Assembly: GCA_009780325.1 (NCBI GenBank)
Contig: WRAF01000001.1
Location: 125,048 to 189,047, forward strand
Source of the DNA: Bacillota bacterium
GTDB lineage: Bacteria > Bacillota > Clostridia > Christensenellales > Pumilibacteraceae
Direction of reading: 5' to 3'
Length of the DNA: 64,000 bases
In this document: positions 2,517 through 39,559 of the stretch, in pieces
Layout: the number at the start of each line of letters is the position of its first letter
How positions within the stretch are numbered: position 1 is the first letter of the stretch
Position numbers and translations under genes: made by a program
The notes under the pieces: generated by a model
What the model was told of the DNA's origin: nothing
What the model saw: only the letters and a program-made list of their open reading frames with translations
Databases searched by the model: none

Positions 2517-2960
2517 ATGATAAAAACAAGAATTCCTTTACCTGAAAATGATGAATATTTGAAATTGCTAGGTGTTGCATTGTATATGTTCAATTACAAT
2601 AATTCAAGTATTATAGAGGCAATATTAAGTAATGATACAAATGGGAACCATAATTGGTATGATTTGATTGATGTTACATCTGGAAAAATGAGGCAACCTG
2701 CCGAGAAAGCGATTATACAAAATGCTAACTCTAAAGAGTTAGCAAAGCAGATATTGACAATGCATGAAGAACTTATTAGAATGCGAAATAGAATAATTCA
2801 TAGTTATCCTACGGGAGTAAGTGATGAGTATTCAAGTGGCTTACTTTATACGAAAGATAAGGAACATAATCAATATGTTGTAGGCAAGGAATATTTAGAA
2901 GATTTTATTAAAAAAAATGATGAGTTTGCGGAATTGTTATCAAAATTTAGGGGTCACTAA
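2517..2960 (+). CDS. hypothetical protein with R-x4-H (HEPN-like) motif, inserted between grpE and dnaK
   Basis: ORF 2502..2960, with the ATG at 2517 after GAGGGA. Contains ELIRMRNRIIHSY (RNRIIH = R-x4-H). It has no counterpart in the canonical hrcA-grpE-dnaK-dnaJ operon. Confidence 0.45.
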   Translation: MIKTRIPLPENDEYLKLLGVALYMFNYNNSSIIEAILSNDTNGNHNWYDLIDVTSGKMRQPAEKAIIQNANSKELAKQILTMHEELIRMRNRIIHSYPTGVSDEYSSGLLYTKDKEHNQYVVGKEYLEDFIKKNDEFAELLSKFRGH

Positions 2961-3032
2961 ACAACAAAACAACAAATAAAAATTAAAAAATAAAAAGGAG
3001 GGGACTTTTTAAAGGAAAAGTCTAAAAATAAA

Positions 3033-4871
3033 ATGTCAAAAGTAATAGGAATTGATTTAGGAACAACAAATTCATGTGTCGCTGTTTTAGAGGGCGGTGA
3101 GCCTGTGGTTATACCAAATGCAGAGGGGGCGAGGACTACTCCGTCGGTTGTGGGATTTAATAAAGCGGGCGAAAGATTAATAGGGCAAACTGCAAAAAGA
3201 CAATCTGTGTCTAATGCAGATAGAACTGTCGCTTCTATCAAAACTCAAATGGGCAGTGACTATAAAGTAACGATTGATGGCAAAAAATATTCGCCTCAAG
3301 AGATTTCAGCGTTTGTTTTAGGAAAATTAAAGGCTGATGCAGAAAGCTATTTAGGGCAAAAGGTAACTAAAGCAGTAATCACAGTTCCTGCATATTTTTC
3401 TGACTCACAGCGTCAGGCTACTAAAGATGCAGGAAAAATTGCTGGTTTAGAGGTTTTAAGAATAATAAATGAGCCGACTGCGGCAGCGTTTGCATACGGA
3501 TTAAACAAAATAAATGAGGCAGAAGGTGCAAAAAAGACTACGGATCAAAAGATTTTAGTTTATGATTTAGGCGGCGGAACATTTGATGTGTCTATATTAG
3601 AGATAGGCACAGATGAGGGCGGCGCTACTTTTGAAGTATTAGCGACAAGAGGAAACAACAAGCTAGGTGGTGATGATTTTGATCATTTAATAATCAAACA
3701 TTTGATTGATGAGTTCAAAAAAGAAACAGGCATTGACCTTAATAAAGATAAATTAGCTCTTCAAAGACTTAAAGATGAGGCTGAAAAATGCAAGATTGAG
3801 CTGTCGGCTCAATTGAAGGCTACTGTAAATATTCCATTTATTAGTATGCAAGATGGTGCGCCTGTTCATATGAATATTGATGTGACTAGAGCAAAATTTG
3901 ATTCGTTGACAGAGAACTTGATTAAAGAGACGATTACTTTAGCGCAAGGTACTTTGACTGATGCTAAATTAAAATCTAATGATATTGCAAAAGTTATTTT
4001 AGTAGGTGGATCTACTAGAATTCCTGCGGTTGTTGATGCGGTTAGAAAAATGAGCGGCAAAGAACCATTTAAAGGTATCAACCCAGATGAATGTGTAGCT
4101 TTAGGGGCTGCGATTCAAGCGGGTATCTTAAATCAAGAGTTTGGTCAAAGCGTAATGGTATTAGATGTGACTCCATTGTCACTTGGAATCGAGACTTTAG
4201 GCGGAGTGTTTACAAAACTTGTAGATAGAAATACTACGATTCCTACAAAAAGGACAGAGGTCTTTTCTACAGCAGAGAATAATCAGCCTGGGGTAGATAT
4301 TCATGTATTGCAAGGTGAGCGTGCAATGGCTAATGATAATAAAACATTAGGGCGTTTTAAGCTTGAAGGAATCAGACCTGCGCCTAGGGGTGTTCCGCAA
4401 ATTGAGGTTACTTTTGATATTGATGAAAATGGTATCGTAAGCGTATCTGCAAAAGATAAAGATACAGGAAAAGAGAATAAAACTACTATTACGGCGTCAT
4501 CTAATTTGAGTGAAAAAGAGATTGATGAGGCAATTAAAAATGCAGAGAAATTTGCTGAAGAGGACAATAAATTGAAAGAGTTGATTTCTGCAAGGAATAA
4601 TGCAGAGATGGTGATTGAATCAGTAGATAAGATATTAGAGGAAAGTGGTGATAAATTTGATGAGTCTGAAAAAGAATCATTGGTCGGTGCAAAAGAGAAA
4701 GTTAAATTGGCTAAAGACGGTGATGATGTGGAAGCGATTAGGACAGCGGTTACAGAATTAGGAGATATAATGAATAGTCTTTCTCAAAAATTATACCAAG
4801 CGAGTGATTGCGGTGCGGGTGGTTGTGAGAGTGACGATAATACAGAGTCCGAGGTTAAGGTTGAGGAATAA
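3033..4871 (+). CDS. dnaK: molecular chaperone DnaK (Hsp70)
   Basis: 612 aa with Hsp70 signatures [27 protein letters not shown] and [12 protein letters not shown]. Confidence 0.97.
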
Positions 4872-10291: not shown

Positions 10292-10471
10292 ATGTCAGTA
10301 ATCAAAGTTGGTGAAAATGAATCGATTGATAGTGCATTAAAAAGATTCAAAAGAAAATGCCAAAAAGATAATATCTTAGGTGATTTAAGAAAAAGAGAAT
10401 ATTATGAAAAACCCTCTGTTAAGAGAAAGAAAAAATCTGAAGCCGCAAAAAAAAGAGGCTTAAAAGGTTAG
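10292..10471 (+). CDS. rpsU: 30S ribosomal protein S21
   Basis: 59-aa ORF absent from the track: [67 protein letters not shown]; promoter TTGACT-17-TATAAT upstream. Confidence 0.9.
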
Positions 10472-10483
10472 TCCAAATATTTA

Positions 10484-10514
10484 AAAGCTATCAATTATTT
10501 GATAGCTTTTTTCT
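10484..10514 (+). terminator. rpsU intrinsic terminator
   Basis: AAAGCTATCAA-TTA-TTTGATAGCTTT followed by a T-run. Confidence 0.75.
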
Positions 10515-10612
10515 TTATGCCATAGGAAAAATTGATTTATTTGAGAATATTTGGACGCCAAAAAAACCCGTGTAATGCAAGCACAAATCGGGGCATAAGC
10601 CCCTTTTTTTAT
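10506..10612 (+). repeat. terminator-associated repeat, diverged copy X
   Basis: Starts at the T-run of the rpsU terminator: TAT..ATAGGAAAAA..TGAGA..CAAAAAAACC..GGGGCATAAGCCCC-TTTTTTT. Collinear with copies at 11252..11358 and 12953..13064. Confidence 0.45.
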
Positions 10613-10680
10613 TGTTAATAACTTTTTTCAAAATTTATGTTTAAACTATAGAAAAATTTAATTATTTGCTATTTAATCAC

Positions 10681-10712
10681 TTGACAGACGACGACGACGA
10701 CGACGATATACT
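10681..10712 (+). promoter_or_regulatory. promoter whose spacer is a trinucleotide repeat
   Basis: TTGACA (10681-86), 20-nt spacer made of (GAC)6 plus GA, then TATACT (10707-12). The downstream gene has a GGAGG RBS. Confidence 0.5.
10687..10704 (+). repeat. (GAC)6 simple sequence repeat
   Basis: Six perfect GAC units, flanked by imperfect ACA and GAT units. Confidence 0.95.
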
Positions 10713-10760
10713 TATATATATCAAATTAATTGTTAATAACTATACCGGAGGAAAAGCACA

Positions 10761-11222
10761 ATGTCAAGAGAATCAAAAATAATTGATTGCCCGCCAGCTC
10801 AACAAAAACATTGCATATATGAGGTAGAGTGTTTCGGTTGGGAATTATTGAATCTGCATGGAGAAAGGATTACGGTATGTAGAGAAACGCAGCACCCAAA
10901 ATATCAAGATATATTAAAATTAGAAAGTGCTTTAAACGCAAAAAAGCAGTTGCAAAATGAATTAATTCAACAAAAAATAAAATTATCACATGATTTAAAA
11001 TTGATTCAAAAAAAATCTGATTGCATGATAATGGCACTTGCAATTATATTTTCATTAGGACTTGCCATAATTTATTTTGTGAAAGCAAATAATAAGAGGA
11101 AATTATTAATACGAAGAATAACAAATAGAATTAATGAGCTTAATTTAGAAATAGAGAAATTACAGCCTGAAATGAGTCAAATATGTCAAGATGCAAGGGC
11201 TACATTTTTCGGGAAACATTAA
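10761..11222 (+). CDS. hypothetical single-pass membrane protein
   Basis: 153 aa with a good RBS (CCGGAGGAAAAGCACA-ATG), one central TM helix (MIMALAIIFSLGLAIIYFV) and flanking coiled-coil-like segments. Confidence 0.6.
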   Translation: MSRESKIIDCPPAQQKHCIYEVECFGWELLNLHGERITVCRETQHPKYQDILKLESALNAKKQLQNELIQQKIKLSHDLKLIQKKSDCMIMALAIIFSLGLAIIYFVKANNKRKLLIRRITNRINELNLEIEKLQPEMSQICQDARATFFGKH

Positions 11223-11251
11223 TAAAAATACTGGCTGTTCACTAGTTTGGA

Positions 11252-11358
11252 CAGCTTTTTTATAGTATAGGAAAAAACGTCTGAGAGAAATGTATAAGCT
11301 AACTCAAAAAAGCCGAACCTCTAAGTGAGGGAAGTGGGCTAAAGCCCACCTTTTTTAT
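11252..11358 (+). repeat. terminator-associated repeat, copy Y (left arm of inverted pair)
   Basis: Nearly identical in reverse complement to 12953..13064. Contains GTGGGCTAAAGCCCAC plus a T-run. Confidence 0.85.
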
Positions 11359-11535
11359 AATACAAGAAATCACACAATATGCGGTGACTCTTTTTCTTTA
11401 AACACCCAACTTTTAACATTTTTCAACTATTTTTGTCGAACATATTTTTTTGTTTTTTAGAAGTGTTATTATAGATATTCATTAGTTTTACATACTAGAA
11501 AAATTGCTATAAAAATACAAGGAGAGAAAAATATT

Positions 11536-11943
11536 ATGGAAAGCGAATTAAAAAAAAGAGCATTATTAGCTAAACAGAGGATGAAGATGGGTTATTGGCA
11601 AGACATGATGAAAAAGCGTGAGGCTATGATAAATAAAGCAGGCAATAATAGTACTAATTTGCAAATAATTTCTCAAGTCCAGCGGGCAGATATTATAAGA
11701 GATGCCAATATAATTATCAATAATCCTCAAATAAATAGGGATGAAAGTCTTTATAATAAAGTTAAAGCTATTTTGGATGAAGATGAATTTGTGACAAATC
11801 CTATTGGCAAGTTGATTGAAAATGATATGCTGCTAAAGATGGACGATGCTGCAAAGCAAAAATACATTTTAGATTTATCTCAAAAATATAGAGAACTAAA
11901 AGAAAGATATTATAAAGAGAGAATAAAAGAAGGCAGTGTATAA
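11536..11943 (+). CDS. hypothetical protein
   Basis: 135 aa, soluble and charged; RBS AAGGAGAG. No family recognised. Confidence 0.55.
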   Translation: MESELKKRALLAKQRMKMGYWQDMMKKREAMINKAGNNSTNLQIISQVQRADIIRDANIIINNPQINRDESLYNKVKAILDEDEFVTNPIGKLIENDMLLKMDDAAKQKYILDLSQKYRELKERYYKERIKEGSV

Positions 11944-12952: not shown

Positions 12953-13064
12953 AAAAAAGGTGGACTAAAGCCCACTTCCCTCACTTAGAGGTTCGGCTTT
13001 TTTGAATTAGCTTATACATTTCTTTACAGACGACTGAAAGACGAAGTATTTTTCTTATACTATA
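12953..13064 (-). repeat. terminator-associated repeat, copy Z (right arm of inverted pair)
   Basis: Reverse complement of copy Y with a ~16-nt internal insertion. On the minus strand it begins at the U-run of the copy-B RNA terminator. Confidence 0.85.
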
Positions 13065-20623: not shown

Positions 20624-20831
20624 TTGGTTTAGTATATCCCAGTATGTATCTTTATAATGATTAATAGTGGTAAGAAGTTAGAGAAATATTGACATTCTTA
20701 TAGGATGACAAAAATTATAATCGGTCATTAACGCAATTCCTGTTTTGCTTTAATCTAAAATTATGTCATTCTGTAAGAATCTCATCCTTAGAAAAATCTT
20801 ATTGCAAAAAATAATTGATGCAACAAATTGC

Positions 20832-20866: not shown

Positions 20867-23065
20867 ATGATTGCACGAGTTATTGTTGATATTTCTAATA
20901 ATGAGGTGGACAAGATATTTGATTATCTTTCCATTGACGGAGCAAAACCAGGGCATAGAGTCATGGTTCCTTTTGGACGCAGGCAAATTGAGGGTTATGT
21001 AATTTCTTTATCGGAAAAGAGTGATTATGATAATTCTAAATTAAAAAAAATTAATAGACTTCTTGATGAAAATCCTGTCATAACTAGTGAAATGCTTGAA
21101 TTAATGGAATTTATGAAGTATCGTTATCATTTGAGGATAGTTGATATTTTGAGATTATTTATTCCTGCTCAAATGCGGGGCGGCAGAATAAAAGAATTAA
21201 CTAGGCTTTTTGCCAGCATAACTGATGAGTTTAAAGCCAAAAATATAGAGGAATTTATAAAACCAAATAGTTTGGCACAAAGAGAATTGTTTGAGTTTTT
21301 ATTAGAGAATAACGGGGCGTTTGTGTCTTTATTAAGAGAGAATTTTTCTTCAGCTGCTTATAATAATTTGTTAGAGCGAGGTGTGTTGATTCAAGAAAAT
21401 AGAAAGGTCAATCGAACTCCTTACAAATCTATAGGTGAGATGGATAATGAATTTGTATTGACTGCAGCACAAGAAAATGCTGTGCAAACTATAGTAGGCG
21501 CTAATAAAAATAGAAAATTTTTGCTGCACGGTGTCACAGGCAGCGGGAAAACTGAAGTTTATCTTAGATGTATAGATAATATTTTAAAACAAAATAAAAC
21601 TGCAATTTTGCTGGTTCCAGAAATTTCACTCACCCCGCAAGTTTTTTCAAAATTTAAATCCCGCTTTTGCGACAAGGTTGCAATTTTGCATTCAGGGCTA
21701 TCAGCAGGTGAAAGATTTGATGAGTGGCAAAGATTATTAAATGGAGAAGCGGTTGTAGCCATCGGTGCAAGAAGTGCAATATTTGCTCCGCTAAGAAATC
21801 TAGGATTAATCATCATTGATGAAGAGCACGACGGAAGCTATTCATCAGAGTCTAACCCTCGATATAGAACTCAAGAAATTGCAGAATTCCGTGCCAAACA
21901 TAATGATTGTGCACTAATTTTAGGCAGTGCTACTCCATCAGTTGAAACCTACTATCAAACTAAAGTAGGCGAGTATAATCTAATTGAGATGCCGCATCGC
22001 ATAAATAATACCCTCCCTAAAGTGCAGATTGTCAATATGTGCACTGAGTTATATCAAGGCAACAATTCGCTTTTTTCTAAAGATTTACATAATGCATTAA
22101 AGGATTGTCTAGATAAAAACAACCAAGCTATGCTGTTTATCAATCGTCGCGGATATTCGTCATTTGTACGCTGTACTTCATGTGGTTATGTTGCTATGTG
22201 TGAACGTTGTGATGTTTCGCTGGTTCTTCACAAAGAAGAAGGAAATCAACTAAAATGTCATTATTGTCAAAATCGTTATAATGTTCCGGTCGCTTGTCCA
22301 ATCTGTCAGCATTCAGACTTTCGCCGAGGATATCTAGGCACGCAGCAAGTTGAAGAAAAAATTCGCCAAATATTCCCAGCCGCCCGCACTCTGCGTATGG
22401 ACAATGATACAACTCAAAATAAAGATGCTCACCTAAATATTCTATCTCAATTCAGAGAAAAAAAAGCAGATATCCTAATTGGCACGCAAATGATAGCTAA
22501 AGGTCATGATTTTCCAGAGGTTACGGTAGTAGGAATAATTGATGCTGATATATCGCTTCATTTTTCAGATTATAAAGCAAATGAGCGTACATTTCAACTT
22601 ATCACGCAAGTATCAGGTAGGGCTGGCAGGGCAGATAAAGCAGGCAATGTATATTTGCAAACATATTCACCAAATCATTTTGTATATAAATTTGCTTGTG
22701 AGGTTGATTATCATGCATTCTATAAAAAAGAAATCAACATAAGAGAAGTAACCTCATTCCCGCCATTTGCCAATATTTTAAGAATCTTAGTATCAGGTGA
22801 GCATCCTGACAAAATTGCTCAAATCTTAAAAGCAATTTATGAAAAAATCTTAACAATCTCTAAAGAAAAAAAAGATTGCTTTTCATACCTAGGTTATATG
22901 CATTCTCCGGTCAAAAAAATTAAAGGTCAAATTAGAATGCAAATTTTAATGAGAGTCAAAAATTCCTTTGACGAAATCCTGCAATTAGTATATAATATAG
23001 TGGATGAACACAAAAAAAAGGATATTGCTATCTTTGTAGAAATTAATCCAAATAGTTTATCTTAA
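20867..23065 (+). CDS. priA: primosomal protein N' (PriA helicase)
   Basis: 732 aa. Walker A HGVTGSGKT, DEEHD, Cys-rich zinc insert CTSCGY...CERC...CHYC...CPIC. Confidence 0.92.
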   Translation: MIARVIVDISNNEVDKIFDYLSIDGAKPGHRVMVPFGRRQIEGYVISLSEKSDYDNSKLKKINRLLDENPVITSEMLELMEFMKYRYHLRIVDILRLFIPAQMRGGRIKELTRLFASITDEFKAKNIEEFIKPNSLAQRELFEFLLENNGAFVSLLRENFSSAAYNNLLERGVLIQENRKVNRTPYKSIGEMDNEFVLTAAQENAVQTIVGANKNRKFLLHGVTGSGKTEVYLRCIDNILKQNKTAILLVPEISLTPQVFSKFKSRFCDKVAILHSGLSAGERFDEWQRLLNGEAVVAIGARSAIFAPLRNLGLIIIDEEHDGSYSSESNPRYRTQEIAEFRAKHNDCALILGSATPSVETYYQTKVGEYNLIEMPHRINNTLPKVQIVNMCTELYQGNNSLFSKDLHNALKDCLDKNNQAMLFINRRGYSSFVRCTSCGYVAMCERCDVSLVLHKEEGNQLKCHYCQNRYNVPVACPICQHSDFRRGYLGTQQVEEKIRQIFPAARTLRMDNDTTQNKDAHLNILSQFREKKADILIGTQMIAKGHDFPEVTVVGIIDADISLHFSDYKANERTFQLITQVSGRAGRADKAGNVYLQTYSPNHFVYKFACEVDYHAFYKKEINIREVTSFPPFANILRILVSGEHPDKIAQILKAIYEKILTISKEKKDCFSYLGYMHSPVKKIKGQIRMQILMRVKNSFDEILQLVYNIVDEHKKKDIAIFVEINPNSLS

Positions 23066-29959: not shown

Positions 29960-29988
29960 TTGACAATGGGGTTAGTTTTTGTTATACT
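29960..29988 (+). promoter_or_regulatory. promoter of the lipoprotein gene
   Basis: TTGACA-17-TATACT, ~150 nt upstream of the ATG at 30141. Confidence 0.5.
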
Positions 29989-38650: not shown

Positions 38651-39421
38651 TTAAACTCTCTTTTTCAAGTTGAAACTTTCTTCTTCATTATTTTTAAAAA
38701 TTGTATTCAACTTAATAAGTGTATCTTTTTTTATGTCACCAGACAATTCTAAATATATAGGGGCAGTTTTAATTAGGGTACAAAATAACTCTTCTTCATT
38801 GTTTGCTTCTGCGATAGGGCAAGTGTTATTAGGTTCATACAATAAATATTTCTTGCCATCAAATAAACACAATGCTTTTTCAATTTTAGGGCAAATCGCA
38901 GAAAATAAATACTTTATTAATTCAAAAAATATTTCATTATCAGATAAAAAACTTGCATTTTCTTTTGTCAAATCTCCAATTTCTTGCCATCTAGATTTAA
39001 CTTTTTTAAATGCAAAATTATAAATCCCGTCAATGCTTAATCCATTCTCTAAAACAAAAGACTCTTTAATCAAGCTTCTATCACTTATTGAATCAAATTC
39101 AATAAGTGCTGCTAATAAAATATTATATTTTTCTTCACACAAAAGCGGCAAATGTAAATTTTCCAAATAATAATGCTGTTTGCTTAAACTGGCAAACACA
39201 TCTAAAAGTGACTCAAAAATCTCTTTAGAAATTTTTCTTTTTGCTTGATTTTCACAAGCTATCGCAATATAAACTCTTTTAGGTTCATTGCGAGTGACAA
39301 TCAGTGCACTTTCATTTAGTTTATTTCTTAGTTTTTTCTCTAACGCATACAGCCATGAAGAATATTCAGCTCCTGCGCTTAAACTTACTTGATACATCTT
39401 AAAGTTATTGTATGTAAGCAA
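38651..39421 (-). CDS. hypothetical protein
   Basis: 256 aa, soluble. No family confidently recognised. Confidence 0.45.
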   Translation of the reverse strand: MLTYNNFKMYQVSLSAGAEYSSWLYALEKKLRNKLNESALIVTRNEPKRVYIAIACENQAKRKISKEIFESLLDVFASLSKQHYYLENLHLPLLCEEKYNILLAALIEFDSISDRSLIKESFVLENGLSIDGIYNFAFKKVKSRWQEIGDLTKENASFLSDNEIFFELIKYLFSAICPKIEKALCLFDGKKYLLYEPNNTCPIAEANNEEELFCTLIKTAPIYLELSGDIKKDTLIKLNTIFKNNEEESFNLKKRV

Positions 39422-39559
39422 AAATAAAAATAATCCAAGGTAGTAAAATATTATATTAAGAACTTTGTAGAAAATTGTAAATTAACTATACTTAAACAAT
39501 TTTTAAATTAATGCTTGTTTTTGTTTGACAATGTGATAATATAATGATAAATTTAAAAT

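Follow-up and report, generated by a model that had tools for sequence, protein, structure and literature searches.

A perfect GAC repeat filling the spacer of a candidate promoter may tune expression of a small accessory gene by slippage in a termite-gut Firmicute

Within the 64-kb stretch of DNA analysed in this study (hereafter the window), a perfect GAC microsatellite occupies the entire gap between near-consensus -35 and -10 hexamers upstream of ORF153, a gene of an uncharacterised family. We tentatively interpret this (GAC)6 spacer as a slippage-tunable promoter of ORF153 that is currently weak or OFF, a reading that we consider plausible and still somewhat short of probable. In the mechanism that we propose, TTGACA / (GAC)6GA / TATACT would be a sigma-A-type promoter, and ORF153 would form a promoter-gene-terminator unit set between two terminator-bearing modules downstream of rpsU in this lineage only. 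The microsatellite would lengthen the spacer to 20 nt and leave the promoter weak or OFF in the sequenced population. If replication slippage removed one unit, a consensus 17-nt promoter would result (ON), and the gain of one unit would give 23 nt (OFF), such that mutation of the tract would turn transcription initiation on or off or adjust its level. A tract of just 6–7 units would probably switch at a modest rate rather than at one of the classic high kind. Use of the hexamers, weakness of the 20-nt spacer and changes of unit number in vivo are what we infer from the sequence.

Results and discussion

Anatomy and rarity of the GAC tract

A preliminary description of this DNA had reported six perfect GAC units at 10687..10704 between TTGACA and TATACT, with a 20-nt spacer, in an AT-rich genome. 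On direct reading these positions are exact, and the window is indeed AT-rich (29–38% GC). The core features are as follows.

10681..10686, plus strand: predicted -35 hexamer TTGACA (6/6), from direct reading and the promoter-candidate scan
10687..10706, plus strand: perfect microsatellite, (GAC)6 at 10687-10704 followed by GA at 10705-10706, making up the entire 20-nt spacer (direct reading and Tandem Repeats Finder, TRF)
10707..10712, plus strand: predicted -10 hexamer TATACT (5/6; A at position 2, T at position 6), from direct reading and the candidate scan
10713..10760, plus strand: 48 nt from the -10 to the ATG, with the predicted 5' UTR, the ribosome-binding site (RBS) GGAGG at 10747-10751 and the downstream 13-mer
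10761..11222, plus strand: ORF153, 153 aa, uncharacterised family (ORF call and homologs)
11233..11256, plus strand: intrinsic terminator of ORF153 (terminator prediction)

From this arrangement, transcription of ORF153 would be expected to start at ~10719. TRF reported 6.7 copies of the GAC unit with a 100% match. A 12-nt GAC run (GACGACGACGAC) had 0.00 expected occurrences in dinucleotide-preserving shuffles, and the repeat is far beyond chance. In a repeat census of the window, the tract was the longest simple sequence repeat in 64 kb, followed by (AAT)4, (GGT)4 and (TA)5, and it was the only trinucleotide repeat of at least 5 units. The census found neither a second GAC tract nor any other contingency-type repeat in the window, and perfect trinucleotide repeats of at least 5 units were also absent from 187 kb of other fetched comparison loci. 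The longest trinucleotide repeat of E. coli K-12, at 5 units, is shorter than the tract described here (PMC7015867). Homopolymers in the window end at exactly 8 nt (26 A8 or T8 runs, none longer), a ceiling suggesting that longer tracts prone to slippage are selected against or efficiently repaired. The 20-nt GAC tract is the more conspicuous because of this ceiling.

Other origins of the repeat, or of its instability, were considered and rejected. Neither the GAC nor the GTC strand folded better than shuffled sequence, which argues against hairpin-driven instability of the tract. A coding origin would involve a 38-aa ORF (10666-10782) with a seven-Asp run, which has a TTG start, lacks an RBS and starts upstream of the predicted transcription start. 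A known RNA element was set aside on the Rfam result (0 matches in the window at gathering scores, with only chance-level matches in 10400-11600).

The hexamers as the promoter of ORF153

The hexamers at 10681..10686 and 10707..10712 are, on sequence grounds, well supported as the best and practically the sole promoter candidate for ORF153. Only two plus-strand candidates in 10611-10760 matched the consensus at 9/12 positions or better, namely TTGACA-20-TATACT (11/12) and TTGACA-15-GACGAT (9/12), and all others reached at most 8/12. The TTGACA at 10681..10686 is also the sole perfect -35 in the 150 nt from the upstream terminator to the ATG. Sites with a 20-nt spacer and hexamers of at least 11/12 numbered only 4 per 128 kb of scanned strand. 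The repeat abuts both hexamers directly, and such a fit between two near-perfect hexamers seems unlikely to arise by chance. This match should be read with some caution, considering that the -35 TTGACA itself contains GAC and that the repeat could have created part of its agreement with the consensus.

As rpsU and ORF153 are separated by two strong intrinsic terminators, ORF153 needs a promoter of its own.

10483..10510, plus strand: intrinsic terminator of rpsU, the first of two that shield ORF153 from read-through (terminator prediction)
10590..10610, plus strand: second terminator, GGGGCATAAGCCCC (10590-10603) plus T7, forming the 3' end of repeat module W1

It is improbable, in our estimate, that the hexamers are not a functional promoter and that ORF153 depends instead on a weak AT-rich site in 10611-10760 or on terminator read-through, or that an opposite-strand promoter dominates the region, with the repeat in each case lying outside any functional spacer. 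This account draws on our consensus scan, which used 16–18-nt spacers and does not list the plus-strand site. The scan does list a minus-strand site, and its 16 matches were near the shuffle expectation of 12.7 for such AT-rich DNA. The low scores of the other plus-strand candidates argue against the first version and the two terminators, which block read-through, against the second. In addition, homologs of ORF153 have consensus promoters at a matching distance from the ATG (see below). As for the third version, the opposite-strand site is the following.

10739..10767, minus strand: promoter-like TTGACA-17-TATAGT (11/12), facing the plus-strand promoter (consensus scan)

This site (10767..10739), which the preliminary description did not include, is probably incidental. 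Its -35 is merely the reverse complement of the conserved ORF153 codons 1–3 (ATG TCA A), and its -10 was not conserved in the homologs examined. If active, it could add transcriptional interference. The candidate ranking, the terminator insulation and the promoters of the homologs together support, at the level of sequence, the earlier assignment of TTGACA/TATACT as the promoter of the gene at 10761..11222.

Spacer length and its predicted consequence

Across the window, 14 of the 26 hexamer pairs that matched the consensus at 11/12 or better had a 17-nt spacer, compared with 0–4 at each other spacer length from 14 to 22 nt. About half of the 17-nt-spaced sites are sense-oriented and precede genes. 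Since near-consensus sites cluster at 17 nt, the organism uses canonical sigma-A spacing. The gene family has the same preference: a promoter of at least 11/12 with exactly 17 nt precedes 10 of 18 homologous genes (8 of these promoters are 12/12), and these TTGAC(A/T)-17-TATAAT promoters are located 26–110 nt from the ATG versus 48 nt in the window. Because 17 nt is preferred both in the window and in the family, the 20-nt spacer is off-optimum and steps of 17, 20 and 23 nt are meaningful.

The ORF153 spacer exceeds the 17-nt norm by 3 bases, exactly one GAC unit. Five units would produce TTGACA-17-TATACT, equal in quality to a 17-spaced TTGACA...TATACT site at 29960, where the same -10 is used elsewhere in the window; seven units would produce a 23-nt spacer. 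The arithmetic proposed earlier (loss of a unit to 17 nt, gain to 23 nt) thus holds, the mechanism suggested there is sound in physical terms, and the 17-nt optimum that it presupposed is shown in the window and in the homologs. Judged by its spacing, the sequenced state of the promoter is predicted to be weak/low or OFF.

Two further near-consensus sites in the window have long spacers, both of them intergenic, in the sense orientation and with no repeat in the spacer.

20689-20721, plus strand: TTGACA-21-TATAAT (12/12), 146 nt upstream of the gene at 20867
39450-39481, minus strand: TTTACA-20-TATAAT (11/12), 29 nt upstream of the gene ending at 39421

Given these sites (at 20689 and 39481), over-long spacing alone is not unique to ORF153. 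A separate observation concerns a homolog locus from Bacillales bacterium UBA1709 (L019, 2457-2480), in which TTGACA is directly followed by (AT)6 upstream of the ORF153 homolog. Several AT repeats occur at that locus, and the abutment of (AT)6 on a perfect -35 may be a compositional effect.

Flanking 13-mers and regulation of the promoter

The candidate promoter is flanked by an exact 13-nt direct repeat.

10611..10623, plus strand: upstream 13-mer ATTGTTAATAACT, directly after the W1 terminator, as the leftmost part of the ORF153 unit
10729..10741, plus strand: downstream 13-mer ATTGTTAATAACT, within the predicted 5' UTR

The preliminary description had suggested that this pair might be an operator. 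The two copies are exact at these positions, and the operator role is statistically weak. An exact direct repeat of at least 13 nt occurred in 1% of shuffles of the 289-nt intergenic region (local P ~0.01), and a scan of overlapping 289-nt windows over 64 kb returned five other pairs of at least 13 nt. No further copy of the motif was found in the window within two mismatches, and the palindrome that it contains (GTTA-A-TAAC) is just 4+1+4 bp. An operator function of the pair is, from its sequence, possible and weakly supported. The 13-mers were also considered as target-site duplications of a small mobile element, which we rejected because the 105-nt interval between them has no terminal inverted repeats.

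These repeats enter into another account of the locus, in which the promoter is regulated: the over-long spacer would be offset by a MerR-type DNA-twisting activator, or the 13-mers would be a looping operator pair for repression. MerR-type promoters have spacers of 19–20 bp, a length that agrees with the 20 nt observed here. The local unusualness of the 13-mer pair, its palindromic core and the position of one copy in the 5' UTR would also be in line with regulation, as would the operator-like repeats beside a divergent XRE gene, or the palindrome (L012), that are seen in homologs. For nadA of Neisseria, NadR operators flanking a repeat are a precedent (PMC2791445). On the other side, MerR operators require dyad symmetry, and the GAC tract, a direct repeat, has none. 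ORF153 has no regulator gene next to it: it is flanked by rpsU and ORF135, and neither these nor ORF276 gave a match to an HTH domain. The five further repeat pairs, the lack of additional motif copies and the 4-bp palindrome arms also count against the looping version. Taken together, we consider a regulated promoter of this kind very improbable, and return to the slippage-tunable spacer in what follows.

ORF153 and its family

The prediction of a real gene at 10761..11222 with an RBS is borne out. Homolog search with ORF153 returned 46 homologs (E-values from 1.6e-17 up to the cut-off of 1e-3), the N-terminus MSRES is invariant across 17 aligned homologs and thereby fixes the start codon, and GGAGG is placed 9 nt 5' of the ATG at 10761. 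The homologs come from Clostridia, Acholeplasmataceae and Bacilli MAGs, with 25–51% identity (~35% at best over the full length). Motifs in the alignment include MSRESK, ESFGWELL, SRETQNPVY, one hydrophobic segment and a C-terminal DSRATFFxKQ. The full-length family alignment has 22 invariant columns (including M1-S5, F25-L30, R41-Q44 and R146-F150), and the motifs are kept in ORF153. ORF153 is intact, with every invariant family residue retained. It is also the most divergent member of the family (at most 35% identity), with N45H, S145A and Y22V at nearly invariant positions.

Searches of ORF153 against Pfam, NCBIfam and PHROGs gave nothing significant, and a supposed likeness to DUF4177 was not confirmed by Pfam. 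The AlphaFold2 model (pLDDT 91) has a small beta-alpha-beta-beta N-terminal domain followed by two long antiparallel helices, and it had no match in a fold search of the PDB. The protein had been described as a small single-pass membrane protein. A single hydrophobic stretch at residues ~88-107 is indeed present; single-pass topology is uncertain because the model places this stretch at the tip of the helical hairpin. The modelled topology leaves surface exposure of the protein in doubt, and this lessens the force of the customary selective argument for switching.

The promoters of the homologs are often accompanied by operator-like sequences in or around the spacer, which makes regulation at this position typical of the ORF153 family. 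One homolog (L012) has a 17-nt palindromic spacer, and seven loci are XRE-linked. A near-identical promoter/operator, GAATACATATG-TTGACA-AtTGAATACATTTGTGT-TATAAT, recurs at these seven loci (L009, L010, L011, L014, L020, L024 and L025), which belong to distinct Clostridia MAGs, and most of them adjoin a divergent XRE/HTH_3 gene of 84–106 aa. This arrangement points to a conserved pair of repressor and small membrane protein in Clostridia MAGs, as far as the sequences go.

An accessory unit between repeat modules

Two further contigs contain the same DNA, one from ENA (ERZ27257297, 266 kb) and one from JGI (IMG 3300010369). The JGI sample represents the P1 segment of the gut of Labiotermes labralis, a soil-feeding termite (PMC7800795). 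We located relatives through the neighbouring ORF135 (75–81% amino-acid identity), and their gene order is rsmE-mtaB-HIT-rpsU-ORF135-uvrD. ORF153 was absent from the rpsU-ORF135 locus in the closest relatives found in this way, and it can thus be regarded as accessory. In the window, the gene is bracketed by copies of a repeat module, of which a third copy lies further downstream.

10517..10610, plus strand: repeat module W1, ~95 nt of hairpins ending in a terminator
11262..11356, plus strand: repeat module W2, which with W1 brackets the ORF153 unit
12954-13063, minus strand: repeat module W3

The ORF153 unit (10611-11261) comprises 150 nt of upstream sequence, the ORF and a terminator of its own, and it lies exactly between W1 and W2. 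This placement, together with the absence from relatives, indicates a lineage-specific, self-contained insertion. In one relative (L030), the rpsU-ORF135 spacer holds two tandem ~95-nt modules (3639-3731 and 3732-3824), each composed of hairpins and a terminator.

Several further observations were made on the module and its surroundings. Another relative (L029) has a module copy at 753-849 with different cargo after it, and in its rpsU-ORF135 gap the positions 864-2297 and 2603-3685 hold genes in place of ORF153. The first encodes a secreted protein of 477 aa that contains many Cys-rich repeats of the CxxC type, and the second a multi-pass membrane protein of 360 aa. The rpsU-ORF135 site looks like an accessory-gene hotspot. 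The module consists of an upstream hairpin with a T-run, a conserved box (ATAGTATAGGAAAAA), hairpin P1 (TTTGAG...CTCAAAAAAA), a variable GC hairpin and a terminator hairpin with a T-run, and it had no match in Rfam. Each of the three window copies lies upstream of, and co-oriented with, a small gene (ORF153, ORF135 and ORF276), and both ORF153 and ORF276 are missing from relatives. The module could encode a small RNA, or it could be an intergenic element that is mobile and recombinogenic.

W2 and W3 share a 37-nt exact inverted repeat (11304-11340/12969-13005) that flanks ORF135 and ORF276 (1.6 kb) and could in principle allow inversion of this segment. The rpsU terminator and the 5' portion of W1 lie between the arms of an 11-nt perfect inverted repeat (GTCCAAATATT / AATATTTGGAC, 10471-10481/10546-10556), and W1 carries the right arm of this repeat where the other module copies have the 3' half of P1. 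In the plus-strand reading of W3, CTTTACAGACGAC (13018-13030) is identical at 12/13 positions to CTTGACAGACGAC of the promoter (10680-10692). With ~0.1 chance matches estimated, this likeness might hint at the origin of a GAC seed.

Unit number and the origin of the repeat

Six GAC units were counted in the window, in the ENA contig and in the JGI contig, which are all identical over 6462 nt (0 differences). Being base-identical to the window, the two contigs are not independent strains. An exact-pattern scan of a metagenome collection for alleles with 2–12 units gave 0 matches. Logan contigs (k=31) from two other runs end at window position 10540 and resume at 11329. We rejected a presence/absence polymorphism of the ORF153 cassette as the explanation, considering that these breaks fall within the multi-copy repeat module. 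The contig that resumes (L008, 11329-12980) has symmetric ends, 12 nt into each arm of the 37-nt inverted repeat between W2 and W3, which accounts for the breaks at the locus. The absence of ORF153 from the Logan contigs is uninformative because the piece between the breaks (~0.8 kb) is smaller than the smallest Logan contigs seen (~1 kb). Two short Logan contigs with homologs (P0003 and P0008) were also rejected as alternative alleles, as they represent unrelated loci.

A trinucleotide tract of six units only just reaches, or falls short of, the cut-offs by which such repeats are usually called mutable. In a PhasomeIt study of Neisseria, the cut-off for trinucleotides is 6 in a table footnote and 8 in the methods (PMC5953494), and in H. 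influenzae no trinucleotide repeat was judged to be phase-variable or located in a promoter (PMC2651432). It is therefore conceivable that the repeat is a frozen accident: a one-off slippage expansion in a once-canonical promoter would have weakened or silenced a recently acquired accessory gene, and the tract would be too short to switch usefully. The same six units on all three contigs would fit this explanation, as would the missing sign of contingency-locus use in 64 kb (homopolymers of at most 8 nt and no other long repeats), the absence of ORF153 from the closest relatives and its position as the most divergent family member with the three substitutions given above. However, ORF153 is intact, and the repeat is perfect at 20/20 positions, whereas an old inert repeat would gather interruptions. 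The repeat also fills the spacer exactly, like the evolved spacer switch of hif (PMC2651432), and in large gut populations rates of even 1e-6 would supply 5-unit variants for selection. Weighing both sides, we regard a frozen accident as unlikely, although it deserves serious attention.

A stronger form of our preferred reading, the slippage-tunable spacer, is that the locus is an evolved contingency promoter, in which the trinucleotide microsatellite toggles the sigma-A spacer between 17, 20 and 23 nt at the same position where XRE-repressor operators are found elsewhere in the family. We consider this stronger form rather doubtful. If true, it would be the first trinucleotide spacer switch, and it would show stochastic phase variation in a Firmicute of the termite gut that is not a pathogen.

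The wider interest of the locus depends on whether the tract switches. To our knowledge, almost all known examples of spacer control by repeat length are from host-adapted pathogens. If the tract switches, spacer-length control would extend to a trinucleotide unit, with 3-nt steps giving near-binary ON/OFF behaviour, and the mechanism would extend to an uncultured insect-gut symbiont. Such control would also reach a conserved, uncharacterised family of small membrane proteins that is elsewhere under repressor control, and the tract would provide a simple read-level marker of population heterogeneity in termite-gut metagenomes. If it does not, the locus would be a mis-spaced promoter on an accessory gene, of little general interest.

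Comparison with known systems

Homopolymer spacer switches are known from Neisseria porA (poly-G) and opc (poly-C) and from Mycoplasma hyorhinis vlp (poly-A). As in these systems, the repeat upstream of ORF153 lies inside the core promoter spacer, and expression would depend on an optimum of ~17 nt. The homopolymer tracts change in 1-nt steps and give graded levels, whereas the 3-nt step at ORF153 would be closer to binary, since it jumps between optimal and strongly off-optimal spacing.

A close parallel in layout is the fimbrial hifA/hifB promoter region of H. influenzae, where (TA)9-11 between the -35 and -10 alters promoter spacing (van Ham 1993; summarised in PMC2651432). In both cases a perfect simple repeat fills the spacer, the gain or loss of a unit changes the distance between -35 and -10 and hence promoter strength, and the regulated gene has an envelope-associated product. 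The two also differ in several respects. The unit is 3 nt here (steps of 17/20/23) versus 2 nt in hif, the GAC tract is shorter (20 nt, 6.7 units), and a single promoter is present rather than two overlapping divergent ones. The host is a termite-gut Firmicute rather than a mucosal pathogen, and variation in unit number has been demonstrated for hif, whereas the switch at ORF153 is only predicted.

In Mycoplasma gallisepticum vlhA, a (GAA)n tract of 6–12 units varies between strains and gates transcription (PMC6258824). The likeness lies in a trinucleotide repeat that controls transcription initiation, with one length among the 6–12 units being ON. The GAA tract is, however, ~40 nt upstream of the transcription start and outside the -35/-10 spacer (PMC6258824), it is thought to act via an activator or an alternative sigma factor, and it belongs to a multigene family. 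At ORF153 the tract is inside the core promoter, the locus is single, and no second GAC tract was found in the window.

In N. meningitidis nadA, a TAAA tract is flanked by NadR operators (PMC2791445). A repeat tract between two protein-binding sites is the architecture that the preliminary description had proposed for the 13-mers. In nadA, however, the tract lies distal to the core promoter and the operators have been defined by experiment, whereas the 13-mers here are putative operators and statistically weak.

Within the ORF153 family itself, the XRE-controlled homolog promoters share the gene family, the -35 hexamer and a similar distance between promoter and ATG. They differ in having a 17-nt spacer with repeated TGAATACAT boxes and a divergent HTH_3 gene; in the window no regulator is adjacent, and the spacer is a microsatellite. 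If real, the ORF153 promoter would thus be a trinucleotide variant of the classic spacer-length switch in an unusual host, with vlhA as a more distant relative.
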